NCBI GenBank assembly: GCA_947625405.1
Contig: CANQOF010000011.1
Location: 6,926 to 70,925, forward strand
Length of the DNA stretch: 64,000 bases
Direction of reading: 5' to 3'
Source: an uncultured Atopobiaceae bacterium
GTDB taxonomy: Bacteria; Actinomycetota; Coriobacteriia; Coriobacteriales; Atopobiaceae
The notes beneath the pieces were generated by a model, which was given only the letters and a program-made list of their open reading frames with translations, did not search any database and was not told where the DNA came from. Shown here piece after piece: positions 8,016 to 40,776 of this stretch. Every line of letters begins with the position of its first letter. Position 1 is the stretch's first letter. The translations under genes and the position numbers were made by a program.

Positions 8016-8040
8016 CGGGGCCTTCGCGCCGCAAGGCAAA

Positions 8041-11110: not shown

Positions 11111-11222
11111 CCCTCCCCGCGCCGCGAGCCCGCGCGTCGCCGCGCGAGCGGGCCGCGGCACGAGCGAGCGGGCCGCAGCCTCAAGCGAAGACTCGAAGCA
11201 AAAGACGAGGTAGAAAGCCAGC

Positions 11223-12593: not shown

Positions 12594-12683
12594 CGCCTTG
12601 CGGCCCGGGCAGGATGCGGCGCGGAGGCGCGCGGACGGCAAAGAAAAGCGAGGTGCACGGCCGAGGGCGGTCCTCGGCCAGGG

Positions 12684-13895: not shown

Positions 13896-14058
13896 ACCGC
13901 CGCCTCCCTGTCGCTTCGCGGACAGATTTTATGCCGGATAGCAGGGCATTTGCAAATGTGGAATGCGATTCCATTTTTGCACACATGGAAAAGACGGCAA
14001 TCGGCACGTCGCAGCCGGCGAACGCCGGGATGCTTCTGCCACAGGCCAAGGTGGCAGA

Positions 14059-14090
14059 GGGCCCCGTCCTCGGTTTGGAGGACGGGGCCC
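14059..14090. terminator. 12-bp GC hairpin (GGCCCCGTCCTC/GAGGACGGGGCC)
   Basis: Perfect stem with a 6-nt loop, lying between the ATPase promoter region and the 3' element of surface protein A. Confidence 0.35.
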
Positions 14091-14099
14091 TTCCCGCTA

Positions 14100-14420
14100 G
14101 GTTGCCCTCGTGAAATGAGAGCCGGAACCCGAAGGTTGCGTGGCCCGCGTGCGAGCACGCACGGGGCCTTGGGTGCGCGATCTGCCAGCGCGCTGAGGAG
14201 GGGGCCTCAGCACAGATTGCGCGCCAAGGGCCGGGGGGCCGTCGCCCCCCGGCGTAAGCGCTTCCGCCAAGACCCGTCTGCTAGGAACGTGTCTCCGCGG
14301 TCGTACGACGAACAGGGGTCGCGGACGGGATGCCCGCGGGTAGTGCGGGGTGGCGGGGGCTCATTGGGAGGCAATCCCAGGGACGAACCGAGCCCCCGCC
14401 GGGGGTTAGTGCATGAGCAG
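14100..14420 (-). repeat. conserved 3' region of surface-protein genes, copy A
   Basis: Shares CCGGAACCCGAA, a GGGGGNCCGTCGNCCCCC hairpin and a GTGGCGGGGGCTC...GCCCCCGCC hairpin with 20880-21105. Confidence 0.6.
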
Positions 14421-14422
14421 AG

Positions 14423-17890: not shown

Positions 17891-18230
17891 ACACAGGTTC
17901 CTTTCGTTCAACTGTTCTGGTCGTCCACCTAGCAGAGGCGACCATGTGTATGGACGTGCAAAAAGAAGCTCTTAGGGTTCTCGCGGCGATGGATCCCCAC
18001 GCGTCCGCACACCCCCTTCCGCGGTGGCGTGGACACCCGGCCCGCGAGGCTTATGGGGAATACACGACGTGAATGGAGACGCGCTCACGCGAAGCGCCGT
18101 GGCGCGGCATGCGCCACGAGTCGCCGCGAAAGCGCGAGGGAACCGCTGGTTTTTGGAAGATTTAGCGCCGCGAAGATTCGACAGCAGAAACGGAGCCAAG
18201 ACCCCTTCGGTTCTCAGCTCTTCTGAATGA

Positions 18231-18240
18231 CCCCCCCCCC
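18231..18240 (-). promoter_or_regulatory. G10 homopolymer (C10 on the + strand) in the conserved upstream box of gene A
   Basis: Exactly 10 C at 18231-18240, about 340 nt upstream of the ATG at 17890. The homologous position upstream of gene C has 9. Confidence 0.85.
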
Positions 18241-18558
18241 GCGAGCAAATCGCGAGGTAGGCGGGCATGATGCTCCTAGCTCGCACCATGACCGTTACTG
18301 TCCTCCTAGCATGTAAGGACCGTAATCGCTTGCGAACTCTAGCCCACGTAAGGGAGCGACGTCAAGCAACACGCCCGCCGAGCGGCGATTTCAGGGCACG
18401 GGGAGAGGGAGCGAAAGATTGCAAGGTAGCCGCAAAACAACCGCAACGCTTCCAGACGAACCGCACCATTTGCACTTAGTCTGCGCGAGGCCAGATGACT
18501 TTCTTGCCAGGCGAGACAAAGCAGAAAAACCCAGCCGGCGAATGCCGCGTGGCTCCCC

Positions 18559-20787
18559 CTACGAAGCGCGGAGGGTGGCGTAGAAGGCTACGTCCTCTTG
18601 CCGCCAGCCGAGGGTGGGGAGCACGGCGTACTCGTGGGGGTCGGCGGTCCAGTGGTGGGTGCCGGTAGTCTCGTAGGGGTTGAAGAGCTGGTAGACGGGC
18701 GTGGCGCTCGCACTCTCGCCGAAGAAGAGGGCCTCGCCCCCGTTGTCTGCGATCCAGCCGAGAGCCGTGAGGCTCTCCACCTCGGCTTTCTTCGTGGTGT
18801 AGTAGTGGTCGTAGTTGTAGGGGTTGTAGAGGCGGTAGACGTCCACGGGCCCCTCGACGGGCGCGTAGAAGGCGGTCCCCTCCTCCTCCCAGCCGCGGTT
18901 CACGTTCGCGCGGACCTCGGCCTGGTCGGTCGTGAGGAGGTGCTGGCCGTTGTAGGGGTTGTAGATCCTGAAGACGGTGACGCTGTCCTCGGGCGCGGCC
19001 ACGGAGCCGCCCTCGAAGACGGCCGTGTACACGGGCGCCGTCTCGCCCTCGGCGAGGACGACGGAGTACGGGCTCTGCGTGCTCACGATCGTGCCGTACT
19101 GGTTCTGCCAGCCGCGGAAGGTGGAGCCGTAGGGCTCAGTGACGGCAATGAGCGAGTATGTCTTCACGCCGTCCGCCGCCACGGCGATGCGCTGCGAGAC
19201 GCTGCCGAGGCCGTTGACGTTCACGGGGAGCGGATGCACGAGCGTGCTCGGGGCGCCGGGCGCGCCGGCGTCCGCCGCGGCGGAGGTGGGCCAGTAGGTG
19301 TAGGGCGCCTCGCCGCTCGCCGCCTCGGCCACGACCTCGATCTTCGAGTTCAGATAGCTCGTCTCGAGCGTGGAGGAGAAGTGCCCGGTGGAGACGTCGA
19401 TCGTCCCGCTCGCCGCGGGCGCGCTCGGCAGGGCAGCCTGGTACTGGCCGGATTGGTAGGCGATTGCGGGGATGCCCTCGGCGGCCACGAAGGTGCCGCC
19501 CGTGATGGCGCAGCTGCCCGCGCTCGCCGACGGCTGCGCGTAGCCCCGTTGCGCGCTCACGACCACCGCCGCCGGCACGTAGGCGATCTCCGCGCTCGAG
19601 CCCTCGGCCGTGGCGTCGCCCACGTTCACGGGCGCGCTCGAGGTGGCGGTGATGCCGCCGTTCGAGATGGCGAGCGTGGTGCCGAGCGAGACGATGCCCG
19701 CGCCGCCCGTGACGCTTCCGCCGGAGATGGTGCACTGGCTCGCCACGGACGCGCCCTCGGCGCTCGTGAGGCACATGCCGGCGCCCGCCGTGCCGCCCGC
19801 CACGGAGCCGCCCGTCATGGTGATCTCGATCACGCCGTCCGCACCGCCGAAGGTGGCGATGCCCGCGCTCGGGCCAAAGACTGAGCCGCCCTTGAGGAGC
19901 GCGATGTCCGCGCCGCCCGAGAGCGCGAGGCCATAGCCCGCCGCCTGCGCCGCCGGCACGCCGACGGTGCCCGCGTTCATCGTGATCGCGGCCTCGCCGT
20001 AGAGGCTGATCGCCGCGGAGCACTCCCCCGTTGCCGTCGCAACGCCCGTGAGGGCGCCCGCCGTGCCTCCGCCGGTGATGGTGCCGCCATCGAGCGTGAG
20101 CTCGCCGTAGCCGTCCATTCCGTAGGCGCTGCCGGCACGCGCGCCCTGCCCGAGGCAGATCGCGGAGCGCCCGCTCGTGGCGCTCACGTTGCCGGCTTTG
20201 AGCGCGAGCGCGGACACGCTCTCGTCCTCGTACATCACGCCGGGCACGAGGATCGCGTTGCCGTTCGCGGGCGCCGTGACGCTCGGGCCGTCGAGCGTGA
20301 GCGTGGGAGCGTGCTCCTCGCGCCCCGGCTCCTCCATGCCGAGCACGATCGTCGCCGGCACGGGGGTGCCCGGCGCGCCCGCGGAGGCGTTCGCGCTCGA
20401 GACGGTGCCCGCGCCCTTGAGCGTGAGGCTTCCCGAGGAGACCACGATCGCCGAGCGGCCCGATGAGGCCGTGAGGTTCTTGCCCGCGAGGTCGAGCGTG
20501 AGCGCGCCCTCGCCAAGCTTGAAGTCGAGCGCGGAGCTCGTGAGCACAATGTCGTCCGTGAGCGTGACGACGGCGCCGTCCTCGCTCGCGGTGGCCTTGT
20601 CGCCGAGCAAGCTCACGAGGCTCGCGGCGTCCGTGACCTCACCGCCCGCGACGTCGGTCGTCATGGGCGAGGCCTCGCGCGCCACGGCCGGGCGCGCCAC
20701 GAAGATCGCGAGAAGGGTGGCAAACACAGCAAACACGGCGAACACGCTGAGCGCGCTCGCCGCGAGATTCCAGGTAGTGCGTTTCAT
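18559..20787 (-). CDS. secreted Ala/Gly/Ser/Thr-rich surface protein B with three C-terminal YNPY...GW repeats
   Basis: Signal peptide MKRTTWNLAASALSVFAVFAVFATLLAIFVARPAVA. The body is G/A/S/T-rich and repetitive. The C-terminal triple repeat is IYNPYNGQHLLTT...GW. GGAGGAG lies upstream of the ATG at 20787. Confidence 0.8.
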   Translation of the reverse strand: MKRTTWNLAASALSVFAVFAVFATLLAIFVARPAVAREASPMTTDVAGGEVTDAASLVSLLGDKATASEDGAVVTLTDDIVLTSSALDFKLGEGALTLDLAGKNLTASSGRSAIVVSSGSLTLKGAGTVSSANASAGAPGTPVPATIVLGMEEPGREEHAPTLTLDGPSVTAPANGNAILVPGVMYEDESVSALALKAGNVSATSGRSAICLGQGARAGSAYGMDGYGELTLDGGTITGGGTAGALTGVATATGECSAAISLYGEAAITMNAGTVGVPAAQAAGYGLALSGGADIALLKGGSVFGPSAGIATFGGADGVIEITMTGGSVAGGTAGAGMCLTSAEGASVASQCTISGGSVTGGAGIVSLGTTLAISNGGITATSSAPVNVGDATAEGSSAEIAYVPAAVVVSAQRGYAQPSASAGSCAITGGTFVAAEGIPAIAYQSGQYQAALPSAPAASGTIDVSTGHFSSTLETSYLNSKIEVVAEAASGEAPYTYWPTSAAADAGAPGAPSTLVHPLPVNVNGLGSVSQRIAVAADGVKTYSLIAVTEPYGSTFRGWQNQYGTIVSTQSPYSVVLAEGETAPVYTAVFEGGSVAAPEDSVTVFRIYNPYNGQHLLTTDQAEVRANVNRGWEEEGTAFYAPVEGPVDVYRLYNPYNYDHYYTTKKAEVESLTALGWIADNGGEALFFGESASATPVYQLFNPYETTGTHHWTADPHEYAVLPTLGWRQEDVAFYATLRAS

Positions 20788-20879
20788 GAGCGGGGTCCTC
20801 TCCTCCAGCACGCACATAAAGGAAGGGCCTCGCTGAGCGCACGCTCAACGAGACCCTTCTCGCTAGGTTGAGTCCTCGC

Positions 20880-21105
20880 ATTCAGAGGACCGGAACCCGA
20901 ACTCATACCCTAGGGTCGAGCGTGCATAGGCCCTAGGAGGCGGGGGTCCGTCGACCCCCGCCTTGAACGTTCTCCGCCCGGGCGTAGCTGGCTGCTAGGG
21001 AAGCGAAGCGCCGAGCGGTCGATCGACGGGGATAGAGCAAAGGGTGGCGGGGGCTCGGGAGAGAGTTCCCAAGCTTTCCGGGCCCCCGCCTTGGGGACGC
21101 TAGCG
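20880..21105 (-). repeat. conserved 3' region of surface-protein genes, copy C
   Basis: Homologous to 14100-14420 with the same two GC-rich hairpins. Confidence 0.6.
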
Positions 21106-21110
21106 AGCCC

Positions 21111-24100
21111 TTAGAGGTTCGTTCCGGGGTAGGAGGCGAACCACTTCGGACCCTCGTTCTTCCAACCCACGGACGGGTTGATGAGCGAGGCGACCTCGAC
21201 GGTGTTGGTGGTCCAGAGGTGCGTACCAGAGGTCACGTACGGGTTGAAGAGCTGGAACACCGGATAGAGCGAGCTCTCGGTGTCGCCGTAGAAGACGGGC
21301 GTCTGAGTGCCGTCGGCGTTCACGAAGTCCTTCTCCCAGCCGAGGGTGACGAGGCTATTCACCTCGGCCTCATCGGTGGTGTAGTAGTGATCGTGGTTGT
21401 ACGGGTTGTAGAGACGATAGACAGCCTGGCCGTCGGCGGGAGCGAACCACGCGATGTCCTCGGGGAGCCAACCGGCGGTGAGGAGCGCGAGAGATTCATT
21501 TTGCACGGTGGTGAGCACGTGTTCGCCGTCGTACGGGTTGTAGTAACGGATGACCGCGATGTCCGCATCAGCGGCAACGCCATCGATGTTGAGAACACCT
21601 TGGAGAGTCGTGCCGTCTGTCGCGCTTAGACCATTGAGATTGAGCTTCACATTTACCTGATAGGCGCCCTGTGAAGCGTTTCCACCAGTCATAACGGGGA
21701 TGTCAAGCGTGTAGGTTCCCTCGGCTTCGCCGGCGGTAAGGCTCGGCTCGCCGAGCTGCACACCGTTCATTTCGCCATTGTCGGTGCCGGTACCGTAATT
21801 AATGGAATCATCACTGATGATGCTCTTACCATGATTCTGAATTTGAACCACGGAGGGATCGATTACGATCGCGGGCTCCTGAGTCTGAACGCCTGCAGGA
21901 GAAGGATTGATGTTGATTTTTAGCGTAGCGGTGTAGCTCCCACTCTCACCCGCCATGATGGAGATCGGGGAATTCCCAAGCACCAGATTCTTATTAACGA
22001 GCTCGAACTTTCCGTATAGCGCGTAATTGATAGTGTTTTGCGTGACCGGAGCTACCTCAGTTAGCGGTTCGGGGCCGTAGATATCTTGCCCGTCCTTGTT
22101 GAAGCTATGGGTGTACCAACCAAGCACGTAGGAGTTGTTATCCGCAACGATCGGCAGGTCGGTAACTTCAACAGATTCGACAGACTCGCTGCTCGGATCA
22201 GGAACGTTGTAGACCATGTTGCCAGTGCCAGGCTCAGTAAAGTAGATGCCCTGTGAGCCACCCTTGTTCCCGAAGTCGAGTACCACCGCATCCTTGTTAG
22301 TAGGATCGGGAGCAGGCTGGGAAACAGGATTGCTGGTTTGGCTGTTGAAAACCACCTGATAGGAAACGGGGATATTGGTTGCGCCCACAGTTGCCTTGTC
22401 GTAGAGTGCATCGACCACAGCGCTGCTCGAAAGATCAGCAACGGTCGTGGAAGCCTTCGTAGCAAGGCTTACTGAAGGCTCGGCGCCAGTGAGATTACCC
22501 GTCACCCAAACGCCATTTCTCAGAGTGGAAAGCGTTTGCTTGTTTGCGACAGCGCCAGCCGGCTGAGTCGCGATGCTCGAGCTTGGATCAGCAACCGTAC
22601 CCGCGTTCACACCCTTGGCAAGCGGATACGAGATGTTGTTGCTGAAGGCACCGGGGATAATGGTTACATCGTAGACATAGCCATCAGAGGCACTGCTCAC
22701 AGAGCCGATGTTCGCGACCATGTAGCCGTCAGGCATATTGAGGTGGTCTGCAGAGCCGTAAGAATTAGAAGCAGGAGTAATGCCGAGCTCCCAAGAAGTC
22801 ACCTTGGCAGGTTCAATCGTGAGGCTATTCCCTTGAGGCGTTACCGTAGCGCCCGTGCCCTTTTCATCGCCATCCATTCCAGCAAAACCATAGATCCTGG
22901 TTTCAAGTGCCGCCGGAGGAACGGCGTCAGGACCGGGCTCTTCATCAGGATCGGGAGCAGGCTTGTCCATGCCACCACCGGCATAGGCAACCCACTGATA
23001 ATTCTGGATCTCACTGGTACTCGGGACTGATTTTACAGTAATAGAATCACCTGCAACGGCAGGAGTGGCAGCAAGCGTGGAGATGTCACCCGCTTGGACG
23101 TTTACGGTTGGGCCATCGCTATTCGCAAGCGTGTTGGAAACCGTAAGAGTGCCACTGATGCCGCTTTGGGGAGTGTTTTCCACACCATCGAGGTAGGACG
23201 GGGTTACACCACCAGTGGCAGTGAGTTCGCCACCAGTAACTGTGACGTTCCCATCAATGCCAATACCAGCGCTCGAGGTTGCCGTCACGGAGCCATTGGC
23301 AAGAGTCGGATTGCCCTTGATGGCGGTCCCAGCAGAGGTAACCGTGAGGGTTCCCGCACTTGTAGCGCTTCCCACAGTCACGGTCCCCGCAGTCAGACCC
23401 ACTGTTTCAACACCAGAAGCGTTGCCGGTGGTAATGGTGGCGGAACCGTTAAGGGTGAGGGGACCTTCACCCAGATTCACATTGTCGGAGGCCTGACCAG
23501 TCGTCGAAGCGTTGAGGCTGCACCCCTTGGCAACGGTCATAGTCAGACTCGTAGCAGTGATGCATGGACCGTTTGTATTGCTCACGGTGAGGGACGGGGT
23601 GTTGGGATAGGTTGCCCCAGTTTCACTTGTTGGATCCGTAACGGCAGAATTGGCGCCCACATTGAGCGTAGAGGTCCCCATGGCCATAGCAGGGGTAGCC
23701 GCCACGTCTGTAGTTGCGGAGAGGGTGCCCGAACCCGTGAGGGAAACGCTCACACTAGACGCGTTATTTGCAACAGAGAAAACCGTCCCGTTGTTTGAAG
23801 ACGTGAACGAGTTACTACCCACAAGGTTAATGGTGAACGTGTTCTCCCCACCATCCGACCCGAGCGTAAGAGGCGTGGCCGTTGCATTGCTGGGGACACT
23901 CGCCGTAATCCCATTGAGGGTAATCACGGAGCCGGTGGCGCCCGATTGAGGAGCGATCACGAGAGGCAGCGTCGGTGTACCAGTTATCTGAACGGTAATA
24001 TCCGTAATGCTACTTGAAGGCTTCACGGTAACCGCTGTACTACTTTCCTCAATAAGGTCAGAGACATCCGCATCCTTATTGCTTGTTTGGTAGATGCCAT

Positions 24101-24236
24101 AACCCTGCTTGGAGGTGACATCCATCTCACCTGCCGGGTCGGCTACCGCCGGCGTGGCGACTACCACGGCGGCGAAGAGGGCAAGCAGCGCTGCCAGCGC
24201 TCCCGCCCAGATCTTCTTCTTAGGACTGTGGCTCAT
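21111..24236 (-). CDS. large secreted surface protein C, paralog of A, with three C-terminal YNPY...GW repeats
   Basis: The signal peptide MSHSPKKKIWAGALAALLALFAAVVVATPAVA|DP, a T/S/N/G-rich body, and a C-terminal module about 70% identical to that of A. AAGGAG lies upstream of the ATG at 24236. The track start at 24623 adds an Arg-rich non-protein-like extension. Confidence 0.8.
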   Translation of the reverse strand: MSHSPKKKIWAGALAALLALFAAVVVATPAVADPAGEMDVTSKQGYGIYQTSNKDADVSDLIEESSTAVTVKPSSSITDITVQITGTPTLPLVIAPQSGATGSVITLNGITASVPSNATATPLTLGSDGGENTFTINLVGSNSFTSSNNGTVFSVANNASSVSVSLTGSGTLSATTDVAATPAMAMGTSTLNVGANSAVTDPTSETGATYPNTPSLTVSNTNGPCITATSLTMTVAKGCSLNASTTGQASDNVNLGEGPLTLNGSATITTGNASGVETVGLTAGTVTVGSATSAGTLTVTSAGTAIKGNPTLANGSVTATSSAGIGIDGNVTVTGGELTATGGVTPSYLDGVENTPQSGISGTLTVSNTLANSDGPTVNVQAGDISTLAATPAVAGDSITVKSVPSTSEIQNYQWVAYAGGGMDKPAPDPDEEPGPDAVPPAALETRIYGFAGMDGDEKGTGATVTPQGNSLTIEPAKVTSWELGITPASNSYGSADHLNMPDGYMVANIGSVSSASDGYVYDVTIIPGAFSNNISYPLAKGVNAGTVADPSSSIATQPAGAVANKQTLSTLRNGVWVTGNLTGAEPSVSLATKASTTVADLSSSAVVDALYDKATVGATNIPVSYQVVFNSQTSNPVSQPAPDPTNKDAVVLDFGNKGGSQGIYFTEPGTGNMVYNVPDPSSESVESVEVTDLPIVADNNSYVLGWYTHSFNKDGQDIYGPEPLTEVAPVTQNTINYALYGKFELVNKNLVLGNSPISIMAGESGSYTATLKININPSPAGVQTQEPAIVIDPSVVQIQNHGKSIISDDSINYGTGTDNGEMNGVQLGEPSLTAGEAEGTYTLDIPVMTGGNASQGAYQVNVKLNLNGLSATDGTTLQGVLNIDGVAADADIAVIRYYNPYDGEHVLTTVQNESLALLTAGWLPEDIAWFAPADGQAVYRLYNPYNHDHYYTTDEAEVNSLVTLGWEKDFVNADGTQTPVFYGDTESSLYPVFQLFNPYVTSGTHLWTTNTVEVASLINPSVGWKNEGPKWFASYPGTNL

Positions 24237-24661
24237 ACACAGTCTCCTTTCCTTGGTTCCTTTGACACCCCCACCTAGCGAAAGGGGCGCTATTTCCTGA
24301 GAGACGGTTCCTTGGGGATGCGCTCCCCTGAACTGCGCGGCCCTGCCGCGCGCCTCACGCAAAGGGGCGTCCCCTCTGCCGGATGCGCGCGCTGCGGGCT
24401 CCTCCCACTCCTGGCCCGCGGGCTTGATGCGCGACGACCTCGCTCCGCGCGCTTCCTTGGGAATGGCGAGCGCGCGGCTGTGCACACGAAAACGCGCCCT
24501 CGAGCGAGCGGAGTTGGGCGCGCGTGAACGCGCACGCGGAATCGCTCGCGAGAACGCCGGAAACTGCCGAGTGGGATACGAATTGAGGGTGCTGCTCGAG
24601 GCTCTCTCGCCTCGACACGACAAAACAGACTAGGGGCCTCTCGCCTTCTAGCCTATGACGA

Positions 24662-24670
24662 CCCCCCCCC
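24662..24670 (-). promoter_or_regulatory. G9 homopolymer (C9 on the + strand) in the conserved upstream box of gene C
   Basis: Nine C at 24662-24670, about 430 nt upstream of the ATG at 24236. Confidence 0.85.
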
Positions 24671-24953
24671 GCGCTAGCCCGCGGGAAGAGAGCGGTTTAG
24701 ATGCCCTAGCAAGCACCATGCCGCGTAAGAGTCCCTCCTAGCAAAGGTCTCCTTCGAAGCGGGAGCTTAAGCCAACCCCGCCGCGCGGTCAAATCTCCCC
24801 CGCCGAACGCGCGGCTTTTGACACGGATTCGTTACGTCGCGCGGCGGCGGGGGGCGCCACTTAGGATGGATAGCCGGCGAATGCCGAATGGTTCATCTCC
24901 CCAGGGAGCTGTGCTGCGTGGAGGAAACGTGCTTTGGCGAATGAGCGATGACG

Positions 24954-25092
24954 GCGCGCTATACTGGAACGCGGAAAACGGCAAGGCCCGCGTGTGGTTA
25001 AAAAGGGAGCGGGCGGCGCGGTTTCGTGAGGGAGACGGAGTTCCTACCTCCGTCTCCTCTTTTGTGCCCTGCGTCTCCGCACGGAGCGTTTC
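24954..25092 (+). repeat. 137-bp direct repeat, left copy (DR-L), flanking the low-GC island
   Basis: Aligns with 28692-28828 at roughly 88% identity by eye. It contains TATACT (24960-24965), the hairpin GGAGACGGAG/CTCCGTCTCC (25031-25057) followed by TCTTTTG, and a relic of the C-terminal codons KRSVRRRRAQKRRRR* on the minus strand. Confidence 0.85.
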
Positions 25093-25099
25093 ATACCAG

Positions 25100-25132
25100 C
25101 CATCTGGCTCTGCGCGGCGCAGAGCCAGATGG
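25100..25132. promoter_or_regulatory. perfect 16-bp-arm palindrome at the inner edge of DR-L
   Basis: CCATCTGGCTCTGCGC-G-GCGCAGAGCCAGATGG, followed within 20 nt by CTCTTTTTG. It could be a terminator, an operator or a recombination site. Confidence 0.6.
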
Positions 25133-25237
25133 TCTAGGCCTTGCCGCTCTTTTTGTGAGCTTTTGCATGTGAGAGTTTGGATCTCGTGGGCGCACTATCA
25201 TCACTCACATAAGCTCGCACCATTGAAATGCATCGCC

Positions 25238-26779
25238 ATGGACGTCATCAAACGCATTCTCCATAAGCTTGATGAGCTTAAACACGTCTCTGACCTCGCC
25301 GCGTATTGCTATCTCGAGGTCACACGTACCGTGCATGATGAAACTTCTTTTCTCGGCGGGTACTGGATGTCGGGAACTCACGTCTCTAATCCGAACCTAC
25401 CCAATCTCAAGCGCCTCGGCTACGACATATCTCGATGCGTTAAGCCCATGGACTTCTATGAGAGGGGTCGGGTGCGCCGTTTACTCGAAGAGTTCGAGGA
25501 AACGGGTATCAAGCCCTACCGAGTCCCCGGGCTTCAAGATCCGGACTACAACGAAGCGACCATTCCATGGGCTGTTCTTTGGGGGCTCAGCGAGGGAATT
25601 GCAAGTCGTCCGGAATATGGCGAGCTACACCGCATTCAACCCCTCAACGAATACGGCAAAGAGAAGGTGGGGGTTTATCTCGCCCCGCACGATTCCTTCA
25701 TCTGCGACATCCTTCGGGAGCGCAAGGTCCAACGAGTGCCAGATGGCCGTCTCAACGAGATGCTTCGCGGACTTGCGCTCTATCCCCGAAGCGAACTCAA
25801 GACCATCGAATACCCCAAGATCAAGACCATCGCGAACATGGAGAATCCTGGAAGAGAGCCGATCCTCAAGATCGGCCTTTGCCAGCTCACCGCCGCACCG
25901 ATCTTCACGTTCGATGGTGAAGACGAAAGCGCCTTCATGGATTTTCGCCACATCGGTGGCGGACTCTTTGATGTGCACTATGGGAGAGACTTCGAACAGC
26001 ATGCGTACCTGAACGTCGTCTCGCCACTCATCGACGCGATCGAGGCGGGCTGCGAAATCGTCGTCTATCCAGAACTTGCGATGTCCCCTCAGCTGCTCGA
26101 GGCGGTGAAGGCGTTCCTTTCGAACCCCGAACACGACAAGAAGGCCCTCAAGCTTGTGGTGGCGGGGAGCGGACGCCCGGGCAATGAACGCGACAACGTG
26201 TGCACCTTGCTCAAATGCGACGGCGAGGTGCTGGGTACGTGCCACAAGTTCAGCAAGTTCATCGATTTGGGGGATCCTCCCCTTGTGGAGCAGCTTGATC
26301 ATCCTGGCGCCACCAACACATTGGTAGACATCGCGGGCGTCGGGCGTGTGCTCGTGGGCATCTGCAAGGATCTCGCCTCAGACGGCGAACGAGTGACCCT
26401 CGAGATCGCCCACGCACTCAAGCCGCAAGTGGTATGCGTACCCGCCTTGAGCCAGTCCGTCGACAAGGCATTCTCAATCGCGCTTCACGAACTCACGGTT
26501 CGCAAGCACGCAATCGGTTGCGTCTGCAACCTCTGCGCCGCTCGCAAACAATACGGGCAGAGTGAGGTAGGCGTGAGCTGCGTTGCCTCGTTTGAATTTT
26601 GCGGCGCTCGTGGGAAGGCCTTGGACTGCCAGATCCACTCGATCACACGCCCAAAAGGCGCACAGGCCGAATGCGCGCAACGATTGGGAGGCTGCATGAG
26701 GGTGGTTTCACTTGATTTCAACGGACCGCTGGGGCCGCGAATCCTCAGCAATCCCTGTCCCGCGCGTATCCAAAACTAA
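25238..26779 (+). CDS. fusion protein: unknown N-terminal domain (about 205 aa) plus carbon-nitrogen hydrolase (nitrilase superfamily)-like domain
   Basis: The C-terminal roughly 300 aa follow the C-N hydrolase pattern. The blocks are KIGLCQL, EIVVYPE (E279), CHKFSKF (K337), VLVGICKDL (C376) and VVCVPA. G+C is visibly lower than in the flanks. The ATG at 25238 has no obvious SD, so the start is uncertain. Confidence 0.6.
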   Translation: MDVIKRILHKLDELKHVSDLAAYCYLEVTRTVHDETSFLGGYWMSGTHVSNPNLPNLKRLGYDISRCVKPMDFYERGRVRRLLEEFEETGIKPYRVPGLQDPDYNEATIPWAVLWGLSEGIASRPEYGELHRIQPLNEYGKEKVGVYLAPHDSFICDILRERKVQRVPDGRLNEMLRGLALYPRSELKTIEYPKIKTIANMENPGREPILKIGLCQLTAAPIFTFDGEDESAFMDFRHIGGGLFDVHYGRDFEQHAYLNVVSPLIDAIEAGCEIVVYPELAMSPQLLEAVKAFLSNPEHDKKALKLVVAGSGRPGNERDNVCTLLKCDGEVLGTCHKFSKFIDLGDPPLVEQLDHPGATNTLVDIAGVGRVLVGICKDLASDGERVTLEIAHALKPQVVCVPALSQSVDKAFSIALHELTVRKHAIGCVCNLCAARKQYGQSEVGVSCVASFEFCGARGKALDCQIHSITRPKGAQAECAQRLGGCMRVVSLDFNGPLGPRILSNPCPARIQN

Positions 26780-26838
26780 ACGATCACTTAACTTTGGGTA
26801 ATAATACCGCCATTACCCATTGAACCATGAGGTGAACG

Positions 26839-27708
26839 ATGGACTACGATCCCAAGGTCCTCTTCCAGGAAGTGCTCGACGACCTTGAAGCAAACAAGCC
26901 CCTCGAAGAACGCCAATTTCGCCTTATCTACGACTACACCTGCGATCTCATGCGCAACAAGCGCTCGATGGAGCCTTATGTGCAGAACGTGTGCCAACGC
27001 GTGATAAGCGCCTACGACCTCCATGAAGACGAGATCCGCGCCAAGTCCAACAGCTTCGACTGGGCCGCGGTGTGGGCCGCCTTCTCCATGCTTGAGCAGT
27101 ATCGCCGCGATCTCAGGCAAGACGCGAGGGATGTGGAGCGAATCGCCGTCGTGCGGAACTACCTCGATCTCTTCGAGGCGATCGATGCCAATCCCTGGTG
27201 CAACCAGCGGGCACTCGCCGAGATACTCGGCAAGTCCGCGGGCGATATCTCGCAAAAGCTCGAGAAGATTCGTCGGGTTGACGATCTCATACATGAGATT
27301 TCCTCGGGCAGGGAGAAGTTCTACAGCCTCTCTGAGACAGGCGCGAGGATCCTCAGCGAGCAGCGCCACAAGGCGGAGGCAGGCGTCAGCCTCCCTCTCA
27401 GGCTGGGCGGCGTCCGCTCCCCGCTCAGCGTGAGGTATCACATTGACGTCGGCCTCCATGAGGCCAAGATTACGCGATACGACAAGACCGGCAAGGCGAA
27501 ACCCCACATCGTTATGGTCCACCCTGCGCTTTCTAGCCCAGTTCGTAGCGAATCCGCGCAGGGTCCAAAGGTACAGGCAACAACTGATGCGATGAAAGTG
27601 GGCGCGGGACTTGATTCAACAAGCATGGTGCGCATCCAACCCGTCGAAGACACGCCGGCAAGAGATATGCGTGAAGCCGCTCATTTCTTGAAGGGACAAA
27701 AGCGATGA
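26839..27708 (+). CDS. winged helix-turn-helix (MarR/ArsR-like) domain protein
   Basis: The central segment NQRALAEILGKSAGDISQKLEKIRRVDDLIHEISSGREKFYSLSETG has an HTH-plus-wing pattern. GAGGTGA lies 5 nt upstream of the ATG. The stop overlaps the next start (ATGA). Confidence 0.6.
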   Translation: MDYDPKVLFQEVLDDLEANKPLEERQFRLIYDYTCDLMRNKRSMEPYVQNVCQRVISAYDLHEDEIRAKSNSFDWAAVWAAFSMLEQYRRDLRQDARDVERIAVVRNYLDLFEAIDANPWCNQRALAEILGKSAGDISQKLEKIRRVDDLIHEISSGREKFYSLSETGARILSEQRHKAEAGVSLPLRLGGVRSPLSVRYHIDVGLHEAKITRYDKTGKAKPHIVMVHPALSSPVRSESAQGPKVQATTDAMKVGAGLDSTSMVRIQPVEDTPARDMREAAHFLKGQKR

Positions 27709-28283
27709 GCTATGCGGATACGTTGCCAAGCGAAGCTAAGGTGAAGGATTGGCTTTCGCAGATCCAGAGTGCGAGCAAAGAGGAACGCGCCGGCGAGATC
27801 CTTCGCCACGTCGTGGAACACCACCATTGCCAACTTACGAATACCTCTCCTGATGAGGATTTGGAAAGGCTCGAAGCCTTGCAGGATTCGGGGATCGTAC
27901 GCTGCGTTCTTTCCACCATTCAGCGCCTTGAGCTGCTGAACCCCGAGGCTCAGGTGTTCTACGTGAGCCTTGCTGATTGCCTGCTGAGCGATTCTCTTTT
28001 CCCGAGCGAGGAAGACAAGACTGCGGCACTCGTCCTCATGGTGAGCTATCCATCGTTGCCCTACCACCGCTACGAGCCTGTGACGCTCAATAACGTTGAG
28101 CTCGTAGAGCGAAGAGCGGAGCTCGAAGATACGCTCGATGAGCTTTGGAGGCTCTCGCAGCGACAATTCGGACGACAGATCGATTTCTGTGCCGCGTATC
28201 TCAGCGTTGTCGCGCGTTTCGATGATCTAGCCGATCGCGCAATCCTCATGTCGGAGATCGTAGAGCGTAGCTACGAGAGCTAG
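27705..28283 (+). CDS. hypothetical protein (predicted helical, acidic), translationally coupled to the wHTH gene
   Basis: ATGA start/stop overlap at 27705-27708. The 192-aa sequence is protein-like and I recognise no motif. Confidence 0.55.
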   Translation: MSYADTLPSEAKVKDWLSQIQSASKEERAGEILRHVVEHHHCQLTNTSPDEDLERLEALQDSGIVRCVLSTIQRLELLNPEAQVFYVSLADCLLSDSLFPSEEDKTAALVLMVSYPSLPYHRYEPVTLNNVELVERRAELEDTLDELWRLSQRQFGRQIDFCAAYLSVVARFDDLADRAILMSEIVERSYES

Positions 28284-28691
28284 CGAGTAGCGCATTGCGC
28301 TTGATGCGATTCCGCATGAACGCTGCCCGCCAGTACTTTTGGCTTCGGGTTCCTTTGCTCGCTCAATGCCCGGCAGCGTCTTGCCGCTGAGTGGCTTTGC
28401 TCGCCCACCCCTTCTGGCGTCGAGCGGCCTTAATCGCCCGAATTGCGAGATTTAGGGCCCTCTGTGGCATTTCATGCGCGAACGAAGGGCCTCGACGGCC
28501 TCATATCGAAATCACTTGTGCGACTTTGGAGCTTCCACGGTCAAAAAGGCGAAGGAGAGCTTTCGGCGAGACCTGGCTCAATTCCGTCGAGTTCATCGAT
28601 CATCCTCGACGGAGTTGACGGGTCCTCTGTCGAGCGTACGGCGTGTGCCACTCGCGTGAAAGTTGCGCGGCATCGATTGGGCGCCCTCGGA

Positions 28692-28828
28692 GCGCGCTAT
28701 ACTGAGCGCGGAAAACGGCGAGGCCCGCGTGGGGTTAAGTAGGAGCGGGCGGCGCAGTTTGCTTAAGGAGACGGAGATCCTACCTCCGTCTCCTCTTCCG
28801 TGCCCTGCGTCTCCGCACGGAACGTTTC
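28692..28828 (+). repeat. 137-bp direct repeat, right copy (DR-R)
   Basis: See DR-L. It contains TATACT at 28698-28703 and the hairpin at 28767-28793, and overlaps the 3' end of the small ORF 28780-28908. Confidence 0.85.
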
Positions 28829-28908
28829 GTCCTCCTTTCCAACCAGTCGTAGATACTGATCAGACCAGCGACGATCGTGACGATCGCCGTCAAGAGTTCA
28901 ACGATCAT
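28780..28908 (-). CDS. small membrane peptide (42 aa) with an Arg-rich tail
   Basis: MIVELLTAIVTIVAGLISIYDWLERRTKRSVRRRRARKRRRR has one TM helix and a polybasic tail. ATG at 28908 with a G-rich stretch upstream. The stop codon lies in the loop of the DR-R hairpin. It is only the 3' tail of the 270-aa track ORF. Confidence 0.4.
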   Translation of the reverse strand: MIVELLTAIVTIVAGLISIYDWLERRTKRSVRRRRARKRRRR

Positions 28909-29038
28909 GGGCTCGCCCCCTCTCTCATCGAGAGTGCGCCACCCGCGTGCGGACCTCGCCTCGGGAGCATTCTGGGGCTGAGAGCCCGAGGAAAACCTTG
29001 CAAGGATCCAACACCCGAGGTCAGTTACAAAATCACCA

Positions 29039-29070
29039 CAAGGCGAAAGGGACGGTTCCTTGTGTCTTGC
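29039..29070. repeat. GCAAGAC...GGGACGGTYCC...GTCTTGC hairpin element, copy 2
   Basis: CAAGGCGAAAGGGACGGTTCCTTGTGTCTTGC, in the divergent intergenic region. Confidence 0.6.
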
Positions 29071-29136
29071 TTTCGTATGATTGGGGCGTGAGATGGCGGG
29101 AGCGATTGGGGCTCCTTGGGCAGAGAGTGGTGGTCT

Positions 29137-30831
29137 ATGTATTGCGGCAAGTGCGGCACCGAGATCCAGCCTGGCGCGAAGTTCTGTCCGAAATGCGGCG
29201 CGCCCGTCGCCGAGGCGAACGAGGCCGCGCAGCCGCAGGCGGCCGCCTCGCAGCCGGCGAACGGGACCGAGCCATCGCCGGCATCCGCGCCCGCACCAGC
29301 TCCCGCGCCCGCACCAGCTCCCGCGCCCGCGCCCGCGCCCAAGTCCCGCGTGCCGCTCTTTGCCGGCATCGCCATCGCGGCCGCGGTGGTGGTCGCGACG
29401 GGCGTCTGGGTGTGGTTCGCCTTCCTCGCCCCCATCCCCATCGACGAAGCCACCTTCCCCGACGCGGCCGTGCGAAGCGTCGTCGCGAGCCAGCTCGACA
29501 CCGACGGCAACGGCGAGCTCTCCCGCGAGGAGGCCGGAAACGCCACGAGCTTCTCCGTGGACGGCGCGGCGAACCTCGAGGGCCTGCGGCACTTCCCCAA
29601 CCTCGCGAGCATCTCCGTGGCCGGCACGTCGCTTTCCGCCGTGGACCTCGCCCCCTTCGCAAACCTCGAATCCTTCACGACCGAATCCACGCTCCCCACG
29701 CTCGACGTCTCACGCAATCCGCGCCTCACGAAGCTCTTCATCGCGGACGACACGGAGGTCACGGGCCTCGAGGCCACGAACCTCGAGGAAACGTGGCTTC
29801 CCATGGGCTTCACGCGCGGCTTTGGCCAGGAGGGCGAGACGATGGAGACGCAGGAGGGTGATTCCGTCGTGCGCGACGCGGCCGGCACACCGACCGTCTA
29901 CAAGGAGGTGTGGTACTCGCGCGGCACGGGCGAGAAATCCACGGCCACCACGACCTACGACTTCGACGACGCGGGCAGGATCGTGTCCGCCACCACGGAG
30001 AGCTTCTACTCGAGCACCGACGACGGCTCCGCGTACACCAGCGAGTACCGCTACGACGACGCCGGGCGCCTCGCCACGGCCACGAACCACTACGACTACG
30101 GCACCTACACCACGAACTACACCTACGACGCGGACGGGAGACTCTCCGCCTGCTCGCAGGGCTATCCGGATTCCACGACGGATCCCACCGGGACGAAGAT
30201 CAACTACGACGACGCCGGGCGCGCGATCTCCGTCGTGAACGAGACGCCGGGCGCGGCGAACCAGGTGCTCGAGAACTATGGCTACGACGACGCAGGGCGG
30301 CTCTCGAGCGTCTCGAACATCCGCCCGAAGTCCTACAACTACACCGACTACGCGCTCACCTACGACGAGGAGGGGCGCGTGGCGAAGGTGGAGATGACGC
30401 CGGGCGCCCCGCTCGGCTCGAGCAGCGTCACCCCCACGGGGAGCTACCGCGTGTCCATCGAATACGCCTACGACGAGAACGGGCGCTTCTCGAGCGCGAG
30501 CTCCGTCGCCGACTACGGCAGCGGCACGCCGAGCGAGGCCGAGGCAAGCTTCGAGTACGACGGGCACGGCAACCTCGTGAAGGTGGACGTGCGCCACAAG
30601 TCGCAGGACAGCTCCTACCCGGACTCGCACACCGTCTTTGAAGCCAGCTACGCGCGCTTCTTCACCGAGAAAGGCGCCGAGCCGCCCACGCGGGTGCTTT
30701 ACTTCGAGCCCTCGTGCTCCGATTCGATCTTCGGGGAGTTCACGCTGAGCCCCACGACGCCCGCGATCCCGGACCTCGGCGCGCCCTACATGGCGTTCGT
30801 CTACAACGCACTCGGCACCGACTACTACTAG
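29137..30831 (+). CDS. zinc-ribbon / TM / leucine-rich-repeat / YD(RHS)-repeat protein
   Basis: MYCGKCGTEIQPGAKFCPKCG is a zinc ribbon. It is followed by an (AP)n linker, a TM segment, LRR-like segments (NLEGLRHFPNLASISV...), then at least 7 YD repeats (YDDAGRL, YDADGRL, YDEEGRV, YDENGRF, YDGHGNL). Confidence 0.8.
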   Translation: MYCGKCGTEIQPGAKFCPKCGAPVAEANEAAQPQAAASQPANGTEPSPASAPAPAPAPAPAPAPAPAPKSRVPLFAGIAIAAAVVVATGVWVWFAFLAPIPIDEATFPDAAVRSVVASQLDTDGNGELSREEAGNATSFSVDGAANLEGLRHFPNLASISVAGTSLSAVDLAPFANLESFTTESTLPTLDVSRNPRLTKLFIADDTEVTGLEATNLEETWLPMGFTRGFGQEGETMETQEGDSVVRDAAGTPTVYKEVWYSRGTGEKSTATTTYDFDDAGRIVSATTESFYSSTDDGSAYTSEYRYDDAGRLATATNHYDYGTYTTNYTYDADGRLSACSQGYPDSTTDPTGTKINYDDAGRAISVVNETPGAANQVLENYGYDDAGRLSSVSNIRPKSYNYTDYALTYDEEGRVAKVEMTPGAPLGSSSVTPTGSYRVSIEYAYDENGRFSSASSVADYGSGTPSEAEASFEYDGHGNLVKVDVRHKSQDSSYPDSHTVFEASYARFFTEKGAEPPTRVLYFEPSCSDSIFGEFTLSPTTPAIPDLGAPYMAFVYNALGTDYY

Positions 30832-30838
30832 GAGCCCG

Positions 30839-30870
30839 GCAAGACACTAGGGACGATTGTTTCGTCTTGC
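30839..30870. repeat. GCAAGAC...GGGACG...GTCTTGC hairpin element, copy 4
   Basis: GCAAGACACTAGGGACGATTGTTTCGTCTTGC, located 8 nt after the YD-protein stop. Confidence 0.55.
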
Positions 30871-30900
30871 GAGCGTCGTGCGCTTTGAGCGTCGTTTCGT

Positions 30901-31311
30901 GTGGCGATTTACGAAACTTCGATGGATCTCGCGCGGAGAGCCCATAGAGTGTTCCTGAGATCGAACACGAGGTTGAGGGAGCGCACCGTGGCACGACGAC
31001 CGGCGAAGCGCGAGGGCACGAGGGCCCGCGCCAAGAGCGCAGACGCGAGCGGACTCCCCCAGTTCTCGGCTTCCTTCGTGGCGGAAGTGGGAGCGTGCGA
31101 CTCGGTGGAGGCCTTCCGCGAGCTCCTCGACCGGAAGGGCATCTGGCTCAACCGCAACGCCGCGCAAGGCGTCTTCAGCTACCTCCAGTCGCTCGCGAAC
31201 CCCGCGGTCTCCGACGAAGAGCTCGCCGGGGTCGTGGGCGGAGTAGCCTCGCCCCTGCAAGACCAGGGCTTCATCGACACCCTCCGCATCCTCTCCGACC
31301 AGCTGGGGTAG
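30901..31311 (+). CDS. small protein with a double-glycine leader-like motif (start uncertain)
   Basis: The frame has strong G/C third-position bias from about 30980 onward. Candidate starts are GTG 30988 (GAGGGAG 6 nt upstream) or GTG 31105. The C-terminal part reads ...AVSDEELAGVVGG followed by 22 aa. Confidence 0.5.
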   Translation: MAIYETSMDLARRAHRVFLRSNTRLRERTVARRPAKREGTRARAKSADASGLPQFSASFVAEVGACDSVEAFRELLDRKGIWLNRNAAQGVFSYLQSLANPAVSDEELAGVVGGVASPLQDQGFIDTLRILSDQLG

Positions 31312-31334
31312 GGCGCGCGCCGCGGGGCGGGGCG

Positions 31335-32558
31335 CTACACGTGGAGGATCTGCCAGGTGGTGGGGTCGTCGAAGTGCTCGTTCGGCACCCACCACGCCTT
31401 GCGATTTTCGAGGTCGAACACCACGGAGTGCACCGTCACCACGCCGGGCTCGAGGTCGCCATGCGTGGCGTTGTAGAGCCGCTGGCCCACGGACGCGAGC
31501 ACCTCGAGCGCCTTGCCCTCGTCCTCCACGACGCCGTTCGAGGCGGCGAGCTCCCCCTGCATGGTGCGGTAGCGCTCGATGCCGAGCATCTCGCTCTGCT
31601 CCGCGTAGTAGCGCGGCTCGCAGAGGATGAAGTTGGTGATGAGCTGGAAGCGCTCCTCGCGCTCCTCTTGATCGAGCACGTAGACGGGATCGCCGAGGTA
31701 GATGACCCTGAGGGGGCGGTTGGCGTCCGTTTTGTCCGCCTCGAGCGAGGGGCCGGCCCACTCCAAGATCGCGCTTTTGCCGGAGGCGTCCGCGATCATG
31801 TAGTGGAACGAGTTGTGCGCCGAATCGTGCAGGTCGTAGCGTCCGGCGAGCTCGATGGCCTCGTCCACCGTGCTCGCGTAGTCGAGCATGAGGCGCAGCA
31901 TCGTCGTGGACGTGAGGCTCGGCTTGCCGGTGCTCTGCTCGGTGGGCACGGAGTACATCTCGTGGTTCTCGTCCACGCCGCCGCCCTGGAGGCTCATGTA
32001 GATGCCGCACGCGAGGCCCGCGTCGTTGATGCCGTCGAGCGGGGCGTAGGGCGCGGCGAGGATGTTCACGCGATCCATCAACCCCTGCACGCCTTTCTCG
32101 GGGTCCACGCCGAGGAACTGAAGGTCGACGGTGGAGACGGAGGCGTGGCGGCCGCCGCCGGGGTTCGTGCGGACGAGGCAGGTGTTCGTGCGCTTGAAGT
32201 CGTAGTTGCGGCCGAAGAGCGGGCGACCGTCCTCCGCGCGCGCCATGAACGACGAGCACGTGATGTCGGATTCCTTGATCGTCGTGGGGATGATGCCCTT
32301 GCCGATCTTGCTCGTGATGAAGGAGATGAGCTCGGCGTCGGTGGCCGCTCCGCCCTTCTCGAGAAACTCGTCGAAGTAGTAGCCGCCCGCGACCTCCATC
32401 CGCCACACCTCGCCGTCGTCGTGCGCGGGGTTCGCGGGCGAGATGCGCTTGAGGGCGAGGAGGGACTTCAATTCGTTTCCGAAGGACCGCCAGATGGCGG
32501 CGGCGCTCGCGGCGAGGGTGCCGAGGGCGAAGAGCTTGAGGAACGGATGCTTGGCCAT
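31335..32558 (-). CDS. linear amide C-N hydrolase, choloylglycine hydrolase/Ntn family, secreted or membrane-anchored
   Basis: N-terminal hydrophobic anchor. DITCSSFMA is a candidate Cys nucleophile context. GRNYDF and NDAGLA are present. GGAGG lies 6 nt upstream of the ATG at 32558. Confidence 0.75.
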   Translation of the reverse strand: MAKHPFLKLFALGTLAASAAAIWRSFGNELKSLLALKRISPANPAHDDGEVWRMEVAGGYYFDEFLEKGGAATDAELISFITSKIGKGIIPTTIKESDITCSSFMARAEDGRPLFGRNYDFKRTNTCLVRTNPGGGRHASVSTVDLQFLGVDPEKGVQGLMDRVNILAAPYAPLDGINDAGLACGIYMSLQGGGVDENHEMYSVPTEQSTGKPSLTSTTMLRLMLDYASTVDEAIELAGRYDLHDSAHNSFHYMIADASGKSAILEWAGPSLEADKTDANRPLRVIYLGDPVYVLDQEEREERFQLITNFILCEPRYYAEQSEMLGIERYRTMQGELAASNGVVEDEGKALEVLASVGQRLYNATHGDLEPGVVTVHSVVFDLENRKAWWVPNEHFDDPTTWQILHV

Positions 32559-32846
32559 GAGTGCCTCCGAACGTGCGACGGTTGCGCGCAGCCGCCTCGT
32601 GCGCGCGGCCGCGTGGCCTATTGTGCCGCAGAGCGCACTCGCGCAAAGCGGGCACAAGACACGCAGGATTCGGGTAGAATGAGTGCAACCGCAGAACCCG
32701 CTACTCTGCTTTAGTCGCTACGCGGGCGACGCTTGTGAGGCCGGGCTGCACCCCGGCCTCGCGCGTGTTTGGCGCGGTTGCTTCGTCGCCACCACCACCC
32801 ACTCACAAGTAGACTGAAACGCGGGGTCTTTGCGAAGGAGGGCGTC

Positions 32847-33697: not shown

Positions 33698-33773
33698 TGG
33701 AGCCAGCTATCAGACTTGAACTGATGACCCCCGCTTTACGAGAGCGGTGCTCTACCGACTGAGCTAAGCTGGC
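33698..33773 (-). tRNA. tRNA-Thr (anticodon CGT)
   Basis: The reverse complement GCCAGCTTAGCTCAGTCGGTAGAGCACCGCTCTCGTAAAGCGGGGGTCATCAGTTCAAGTCTGATAGCTGGCTCCA folds as a cloverleaf. It has 7-bp acceptor, D, anticodon and T stems. The anticodon loop is CTCGTAA and the 3' CCA is encoded. Confidence 0.92.
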
Positions 33774-40418: not shown

Positions 40419-40776
40419 AGCGTCGGCTTCCTTTCGGGTGCCTTTCCCGTCGTCTGCCCGCGCGAGCGCCGTGAGGCGCCGGCGAGCAAGGCCCCTTCCC
40501 AGCTGACCTGGTCTTCGACCCCACACCCGCGCACCGGGACCGTCGCTTCGGGCACCGCGGTGCCCCCACGGTTGGTCCTCTCTCCCCGAGGAACGGCGTC
40601 CCTCTCGCGAAGGGAGGTGCGACTTACGTCTAGAACGAGCCGTGATCGCCCGGGTGCGCGCACCCGGGTTTACGTGGGTCCGTTGGGCCTCGTCTGCCAT
40701 GGACTTGGACGGGAAAGCTCGCGCCCATCCCGCCCGCAACCACAGACCTGGCAAGGGACCCTTGAAGTATACCAAC

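Follow-up and report, generated by a model that had tools for sequence, protein, structure and literature searches.

A cassette of three genes lies in a 64,000-nucleotide stretch of DNA from an uncultured gut Atopobiaceae bacterium (contig CANQOF010000011.1; the whole stretch is called the window here). It combines a divergent nitrilase-superfamily fusion protein, a long winged helix-turn-helix (wHTH) protein and a small coupled protein, a combination that appears to be undescribed in the libraries and literature searched. The cassette is conserved as an operon across phyla and is foreign in composition. The favoured interpretation, drawn from its context and given a probability of about 45%, is that of a horizontally acquired module, of a conflict, defence or toxin-like kind, whose effector is the nitrilase and which has no reverse transcriptase. 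What argues for such an undescribed module is its recurrence in unrelated Gram-positive bacteria beside mobile and defence genes. An earlier examination of the letters alone (the sequence-only reading) had placed three same-strand genes between imperfect direct repeats at this position, and the open reading frames (ORFs) bear out the three genes (Table 1).

The product of gene 1 is predicted to consist of two parts. The ~205 N-terminal residues, for which no relative has been detected, are helical and then form a small beta unit, and the motifs NPN and GPLN are conserved in them; a divergent nitrilase-superfamily (CN-hydrolase) domain spans residues ~210-505. Across 102 aligned members, G310, N320, K337, E351, C376 and C433 are invariant, and P278-E279, D378, C479 and C486 are near-invariant (E279 is kept in at least 90%). 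The Glu-Lys-Glu-Cys tetrad corresponds to E279, K337, E351 and C376, and by this residue conservation the enzyme is predicted to be catalytically intact. The profile of the 102 members matches the solved structures of D-carbamoylase (N-carbamoyl-D-amino-acid hydrolase; E 3.4e-5), yeast Nit3 (1e-4) and mouse Nit2 (5e-4). Residues 251-387 align with residues 24-172 of Nit3, and the region around E279 aligns with the D-carbamoylase strand that bears the catalytic Glu. An AlphaFold2 model calculated from the same alignment reached a predicted local distance difference test (pLDDT) of 91.6 and a predicted template-modelling score (pTM) of 0.92, and superseded an unusable model from four sequences (pLDDT 50). 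With the C-terminal ~300 residues, Foldseek finds beta-ureidopropionase, Nit2 and the Nesterenkonia amidase (E ~1e-9, probability 1.0). More than 140 PDB chains match at E<=1e-3, and the best 50 listed are all nitrilase-superfamily enzymes, with a TM-score on the target of 0.4-0.6. The predicted fold of this domain is a four-layer alpha-beta-beta-alpha sandwich, and the identity to the characterised amidases among the Foldseek matches is 11-17%. The early proposal of a nitrilase-superfamily fusion with C376 as catalytic cysteine is thus in agreement with the invariance of this residue, the profile and the model.

Gene 1 has no significant match in Pfam (PF00795 included), NCBIfam, PADLOC or the PHROGs. 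Since the window protein does not reach the PF00795 threshold, its superfamily membership rests on profile and fold evidence. Among 10 distant family members, one matches the Pfam CN_hydrolase model at 26.0 bits (cut-off 23.2) and two match below the threshold. In the viral library the sole match is a cyanophage CN hydrolase, and the N-terminal half gives no reverse transcriptase match in Pfam, NCBIfam or PADLOC. By predicted fold and catalytic residues, gene 1 is a nitrilase-superfamily member on a distinct, very divergent branch that no library model describes. Four conserved cysteines (C430, C433, C479 and C486; CNxC...C...C) make up a cluster (residues 430-486, window ~26525-26695) within a C-terminal extension and may form a structural metal site. 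To our knowledge, canonical nitrilases do not carry such a cysteine-cluster extension.

Gene 2 encodes a wHTH protein, as had been recognised from the letters, and its type is MarR/ArsR. The wHTH is central (~residues 100-175); a helical extension precedes it at the N-terminus, and the C-terminal tail that follows is variable. Its profile matches the wHTH structures of HosA, HlyU, MarR and YgaV (E 1e-4 to 4e-4), and gene 2 orthologues carry precomputed Pfam HTH_24 or MarR_2 matches. The family members measure 270-347 amino acids, with a ~100-residue conserved N-terminal region and a variable tail, and so do not follow the compact MarR/ArsR architecture of ~100-150 amino acids. Genes 2 and 3 overlap by four nucleotides (ATGA), an arrangement from which translational coupling of gene 3 to gene 2 is predicted. 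Gene 3, described earlier as a coupled unknown protein, keeps this description: no domain is recognised and its profile has no match in the PDB. A word-indexed search with this profile gave five matches, and no relative of gene 3 was detected outside the cassette. No signal peptide or transmembrane segment is visible by eye in the translations of the three proteins.

A word-indexed search with four matches suggested that the gene 1 family was tiny; this was overturned by a full HMMER scan of an alignment of four relatives against 1.84 billion cluster representatives. The family counts 1136 representatives (50% identity) at E<=1e-3 and 116 at E<=1e-30, mostly of 500-550 amino acids and covering both halves of the profile. 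Gene order was compared in seven independent lineages (the window, L003, L004, L013-16, L017-18, L019-23 and L024-26), using only loci with downstream DNA. A gene 1 homologue is followed by a wHTH gene 2 homologue in all seven, and a gene 3 homologue comes next in six, the exception being L019-23. The genes co-occur elsewhere, as the sequence-only reading required. The lineage proteins are ~20-33% identical to those of the window, and the lineages range from ~66% G+C (Atopobiaceae) to clearly A+T-rich Firmicutes. The preservation of gene order despite this low identity and wide span of host G+C indicates that the operon is old, conserved and horizontally mobile. In L019-L023, which belong to the P0170 branch (Firmicutes), the third gene (10632-11135) encodes an unrelated 167-amino-acid protein without any family match. 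This replacement suggests that gene 1 and the wHTH gene make up a conserved core to which an exchangeable third component is added. Searches of other collections were negative. Neither gene 1 nor the distant member P0170 has a tblastn match in plasmid and phage collections, and pattern scans of IMG/VR for the gene 1 family found nothing; the cassette is not known from plasmids or phages. An alignment-based search for related loci gave no match among species-representative genomes, which indicates that the source genome is not one of the GTDB representatives.

The genes that surround the cassette elsewhere are the main support for a conflict or defence role. In L019-23 the cassette lies between the core sporulation gene SpoIIR and an element with a helicase/DUF6908 gene, a large serine recombinase and a relaxase. 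In L024-26 it adjoins a Y1-transposase (IS200-type) fragment, two choline-binding/LRR surface proteins and a Zn-ribbon protein. Mobile-element genes are thus adjacent in two of about seven lineages. In L013-16, where rml genes are found nearby, the cassette is directly downstream of genes for a wHTH protein, a PD-T4-6-like kinase and a 400-amino-acid protein. In L013 these occupy 6681-9508 (the set is also present in L014-L016) and encode a MarR/Csa3-like wHTH protein of 264 amino acids, a PD-T4-6-like Ser/Thr kinase of 280 amino acids (PADLOC E 4e-42) and the 400-amino-acid protein. This three-gene set may be a separate defence system. A 909-amino-acid protein encoded further upstream in L013-L016 has a weak DUF4062 match. 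Among those contexts for which flanking genes are on record, none has a called reverse transcriptase. Neither a conserved core context with host-like composition in relatives, nor a failure of the genes to co-occur, nor close homology to a characterised amidase was found, the three observations that the sequence-only reading had set against itself.

In UG5/DRT11, a Cys-to-Ala mutant shows that the nitrilase domain is required for anti-phage defence, and structure-guided mutants show the same for DRT1 (PMC13275509, PMC13436386). The substrate in reverse transcriptase-nitrilase systems is unidentified, and nitrilases are called uncommon in defence (PMC13275509, PMC13436386, PMC9122126). A survey of bacterial proteins with NACHT modules also lists CN-hydrolase as one of its domain abbreviations (10.1101/2022.07.19.500537). 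The cassette shares with the reverse transcriptase-nitrilase systems (DRT1/UG1, UG5/DRT11, UG6 and UG29) a nitrilase-superfamily domain and a location in mobile or variable loci, but it differs in having no reverse transcriptase called in those of its contexts that have flanking genes on record, another N-terminal domain, and wHTH and small-protein partners; the lack of the reverse transcriptase places gene 1 outside these systems. With the Nit2/Nit3 omega-amidases, beta-ureidopropionase, D-carbamoylase and the Nesterenkonia amidase it has in common the predicted alpha-beta-beta-alpha fold, the Glu-Lys-Glu-Cys residues and the profile similarity. Compared with the characterised nitrilase amidases, gene 1 adds the ~205-residue N-terminal domain, the four-cysteine C-terminal extension and a constant wHTH partner gene. 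Cassettes with a wHTH regulator form a general class among defence and toxin-antitoxin systems. The likeness to them lies in a compact coupled operon of enzyme, wHTH protein and small protein, and also in the patchy distribution, the foreign composition and the neighbourhood of mobile elements or of a PD-T4-6-like kinase. The cassette also differs from that class: the window proteins have no significant PADLOC 2.0 match, and the wHTH gene is downstream of the enzyme gene.

If the cassette is a conflict or defence module, it might work as follows. Gene 1 would be a cytoplasmic two-domain protein whose N-terminal domain likely senses a ligand or a partner. The wHTH protein would autoregulate the operon or sense the trigger, and gene 3 would act as an adaptor or inhibitor. 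The Cys-Glu-Lys enzyme would be the effector. Its target would be either the C-N bond of an essential metabolite that bears an amide or amine, which it would hydrolyse, or a protein, which it would deamidate, in parallel with the nitrilase effectors of the reverse-transcriptase systems DRT1/UG5 but without the reverse transcriptase. A more specific proposal is speculative and more doubtful than this general one. It sees in the cassette the founding example of an anti-phage or abortive-infection system that is built on a nitrilase, is independent of a reverse transcriptase and is widespread among Gram-positive bacteria of the gut (Atopobiaceae and Firmicutes); a novel N-terminal sensor domain and a wHTH/small-protein pair would control a C-N hydrolase that depletes or modifies an essential metabolite. 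Nitrilase-superfamily effectors in defence have so far been characterised only as partners of reverse transcriptases (DRT1 and UG5; PMC13275509). If the proposal were true, the question of what these effectors attack could be approached from a second, independent side, with a simpler cassette that is free of reverse transcriptase and belongs to a distinct nitrilase branch. The catalogue would also gain the unannotated ~205-residue N-terminal domain and two unannotated partner families. The branch of gene 1 itself comprises more than 1000 sequence clusters without significant match to a Pfam, NCBIfam or PADLOC model. Even with a role other than defence, a large, conserved, mobile and unannotated three-gene operon of gut Gram-positives merits characterisation.

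Several observations weigh against a conflict or defence role. None of the three window proteins has a significant match in PADLOC or any match in the PHROGs. That the combination matches no described family or defence system had been anticipated, and holds for Pfam, NCBIfam, PADLOC and PHROG; among cassette relatives, PADLOC gives weak generic wHTH matches and one weak RTasNitrilase match (a distant member, E 2e-4). A defence gene is adjacent in one of about seven lineages (the PD-T4-6-like kinase), in a small sample. Surface-protein or cell-wall loci make up three or four of the contexts, for which reason an envelope-related or regulatory role keeps some probability. For instance, in L017-18 the cassette lies among cell-wall polysaccharide genes, with NlpC/P60-DUF5648 and GH25-DUF5648 proteins and a polysaccharide ABC exporter, and in L017 its composition is host-like. 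Finally, a MarR-type regulator together with a hydrolase is a common pairing in metabolism and detoxification.

In the window, the composition of the cassette departs clearly from that of its host. The block 24954-28828 has 57.4% G+C versus 65.9% across the window, and the G+C at third codon positions (GC3) is 0.66-0.72 in the three genes versus 0.92-0.96 in host-like neighbours. The sequence-only reading had described a low-G+C block; the depression in G+C is real, but it is not confined to the block and continues leftwards past the left repeat. Tetranucleotide-atypical DNA occupies 14-18 kb and 21-29 kb, and its edge matches a repeat copy at the right side only. The surface-protein gene at 21111-24623, just to the left of the left copy, deviates to the same degree as the cassette (56% G+C, GC3 0.62). 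The direct repeat, estimated by eye at ~88% identity, proved to be 88.5% identical over 139 columns with one indel (24954-25092/25094 against 28692-28828/28830; blastn E 2e-44). It has two copies in the 64-kb window, where none is expected by chance. Each copy includes a hairpin with a stem of 10-11 bp (GGAGACGGAG-N7-CTCCGTCTCC). Read on the - strand, the right copy contributes the final 16 codons, with the stop, to a 42-amino-acid ORF that ends in KRSVRRRRARKRRRR and is preceded by a purine-rich, Shine-Dalgarno-like sequence. Of a paralogue, the left copy (- strand, 25044-25094) retains no more than the final 16 codons with their stop (MKRSVRRRRAQKRRRR); a stop lies upstream and the hydrophobic N-terminal part is missing. 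The duplication of the C-terminal codons had been read correctly from the letters.

In the favoured interpretation, the 139-bp repeats that mark the borders of the cassette would be diverged duplicates of the 3' end, hairpin included, of a gene for a small membrane peptide. They would be most simply a recombination or duplication scar of its acquisition, and on the + strand perhaps also terminator-like insulators. A rival model, which is possible although clearly less probable, makes the cassette a discrete integrative island: a 3.7-kb element would have inserted site-specifically into the 3' end of the 42-amino-acid gene and brought a replacement 3' end. The gene would then be completed by the right copy, and its original end, now displaced, would survive as the left copy. 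Integrase-mediated islands in the 3' ends of genes or tRNA genes have in common with this locus imperfect repeats that duplicate a gene 3' end, atypical composition and absence from relatives. The repeats bracket exactly the three genes, the left copy keeps C-terminal codons only, the atypical composition has its right-hand boundary at the right copy, and the cassette is foreign and missing from relatives. Against such an insertion, which the sequence-only reading had favoured, no integrase, recombinase or transposase is present in 24.6-29.1 kb or in the adjacent genes. The earlier observation that the block contains no integrase, transposase, reverse transcriptase or phage gene is correct. 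Neither the small ORF nor the repeat occurs in the nearest relatives, and the available data contain no empty site. Flanking direct repeats are absent from the cassettes of other genomes, and the DNA left of the left copy is likewise foreign. The repeat was found nowhere else: its hairpin core has no match in IMG/VR viral contigs, its 11 matches in JGI metagenome contigs are all unrelated chance hairpins, and no further copy was found in these viral and metagenome contigs. The lack of an integrase and of an empty site, with the low-G+C tract extending past the left repeat, leaves insertion into the 3' end unproven. The locus differs from integrase-mediated islands in having no integrase, no empty site found and a composition boundary that matches a repeat on one side only. 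The missing integrase, empty site and further copies, and the result of a promoter scan that detected no sigma-70-like site in 24.5-29.3 kb, speak also against reading the repeats as borders of the cassette.

The repeats may instead have nothing to do with movement of the cassette. In a type I toxin-antitoxin-like arrangement, which we consider unlikely, the 42-amino-acid peptide would be the toxin, a + strand repeat RNA antisense to the 3' end of its gene would be the antitoxin, and the left copy would be an orphan antitoxin gene or a decayed second locus. The single hydrophobic helix, the basic tail and the Shine-Dalgarno-like sequence of the peptide gene are consistent with this. Both copies also keep GCGCGCTATACT with a strong hairpin ~65 nucleotides later, and the conserved TATACT followed by the hairpin could yield a + strand antisense RNA. 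Compared with shuffled sequence, folding is better for the right copy on both strands (z -3.0 and -3.35) and for the left copy on the - strand (z -3.1); the left hairpin with its T-run has a terminator-like score on the + strand. On the other side, the left copy folds no better than shuffled sequence on the + strand (z -1.0), the promoter scan found no promoter-like site, there is no Rfam match, no further repeat copy was found, and a word-indexed search gave no homologue of the peptide. Under permissive thresholds, Rfam returned for 24.4-29.2 kb a single spurious microRNA match. The spacer between gene 3 and the right repeat contains no homologue-bearing ORF and has no Rfam match. The right hairpin lies ~480 nucleotides downstream of gene 3 and, on the + strand, may be the end of the three-gene operon transcript. 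Besides the repeats, a perfect palindrome abuts the inner edge of the left copy, ~100 nucleotides upstream of gene 1; it occurs at a single site in the window and may serve as operator, terminator or recombination site.

With regard to function, a regulated metabolic or detoxification amidase operon also has a low probability. Gene 1 would hydrolyse a dietary or host amide, nitrile or carbamoyl compound, the MarR-like gene 2 protein would sense a small molecule, gene 3 would be an accessory subunit, and the mobile contexts would reflect niche adaptation. Most characterised nitrilase-superfamily members are indeed small-molecule amidases, gene 2 brings in a wHTH of the MarR/ArsR type, a distant member is labelled 'predicted amidohydrolase' in one source, and the P0170 member holds the same position beside core genes in every contig read, of 127 contigs on record for it. 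However, no context links a transporter or further catabolic genes to the cassette, and the similarity to characterised amidases is very remote. Moreover, the wHTH protein is about twice the size of a MarR regulator, its gene is downstream of the enzyme gene and coupled to gene 3, and the distribution is patchy, with mobile and defence genes as neighbours. The least probable alternative is a module that regulates or modifies neighbouring wall-anchored proteins or wall polysaccharides, as the DUF5648 surface proteins and Zn-ribbon/RHS protein of the window, the DUF5648 proteins and exporter of L017, the rml genes of L013 and the choline-binding/LRR and Zn-ribbon proteins of L024 could suggest; it is disfavoured by the three proteins having no visible signal peptide or transmembrane segment, by L019-L023, where the neighbours are a mobile element and core sporulation or metabolic genes, and by the fact that surface-antigen loci are generic hot-spots for horizontally acquired DNA, which may make the linkage incidental.

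Table 1. Features of the cassette and of the surrounding region (window coordinates).
Feature	Position	Strand	Description
Gene 1	25238-26779	+	513 amino acids
Gene 2	26839-27708	+	289 amino acids
Gene 3	27705-28283	+	192 amino acids
Spacer from gene 3 to right repeat	28284-28691		apparently non-coding
Left repeat copy	24954-25094		hairpin 25030-25058, then CTTTTGTG on the + strand
Right repeat copy	28692-28830		hairpin 28766-28794; 3' end and downstream region of the small ORF
Small ORF	28780-28908	-	42 amino acids, one hydrophobic helix, Arg/Lys-rich tail (MIVELLTAIVTIVAGLISIYDWLERRTKRSVRRRRARKRRRR)
Perfect palindrome	25099-25133		16-bp stem, CCATCTGGCTCTGCGC GG GCGCAGAGCCAGATGG, -39.7 kcal/mol, z -4.35
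Variable region	12594-31313		~19 kb, absent or replaced in the two closest Atopobiaceae genomes (L027, L028)
AAA_14 + DUF4143 ATPase gene	12684-13895	-	host-like G+C, absent from both related genomes
Three paralogous large surface proteins	14423-17911, 18559-20817, 21111-24623	- (all)	terminal DUF5648, E 1e-29 to 1e-34
Zn-ribbon/RHS-YD-repeat protein	29116-30831	+	GC3 0.92 (host-like), absent from the related genomes

The comparison with close relatives places the cassette in a larger variable region. L027 and L028, two metagenome-assembled genomes of uncultured Atopobiaceae, were retrieved by anchoring on the gene of the choloylglycine-hydrolase family (CBAH, 31335-32657), and their flanks are 85-91% identical in nucleotides to the window. 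A Collinsella origin, considered on account of the Collinsella-1 RNA match given below, was dropped in view of these nearest genomes, which carry the label uncultured Atopobiaceae. In both, the GDSL-lipase gene (window 11223-12593) directly abuts the CBAH gene, which is inverted. This junction is followed by one gene for a DUF5648 protein and by other genes; the tRNA-Thr region comes later. The DNA of both genomes is uniformly of 65-70% G+C. Of the three surface-protein paralogues, two are missing from it, as are the AAA_14 ATPase, the RHS protein, the cassette, the repeat and the small ORF. A single-copy empty site, whose absence was counted above against the repeats as borders, is not found in them, the whole 12.6-31.3 kb block being missing. 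Look-ups of the window's own cassette (genes 1 and 3) gave only short metagenome contigs identical to the window and no empty site, and exact look-ups of the flanking RHS-repeat protein gave no match. Because both relatives lack the whole block and the low-G+C DNA continues leftwards, the variable unit is a mosaic of ~19 kb and not the discrete 3.9-kb island that had been proposed at first. For the source genome, the analysis exposes 12.6-31.3 kb as a mosaic, hypervariable and probably recombination-prone surface-protein region. The GC3 values of the three DUF5648 genes are 0.51, 0.94 and 0.62, respectively, and this striking spread suggests separate acquisitions or recombination with foreign alleles. 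The Zn-ribbon/RHS gene includes a tandem repeat with an 18-bp period (29267-29338, an Ala-Pro-rich run), followed by a stretch that appears hydrophobic by eye. A tRNA-Thr gene (33698-33773) is located ~2 kb from the variable region. Rfam also identifies a Collinsella-1 small RNA at 32622-32758 (+ strand; 37.3 bits, just above the gathering score) and a full-length raiA RNA at 40494-40756 (- strand; 133.5 bits).

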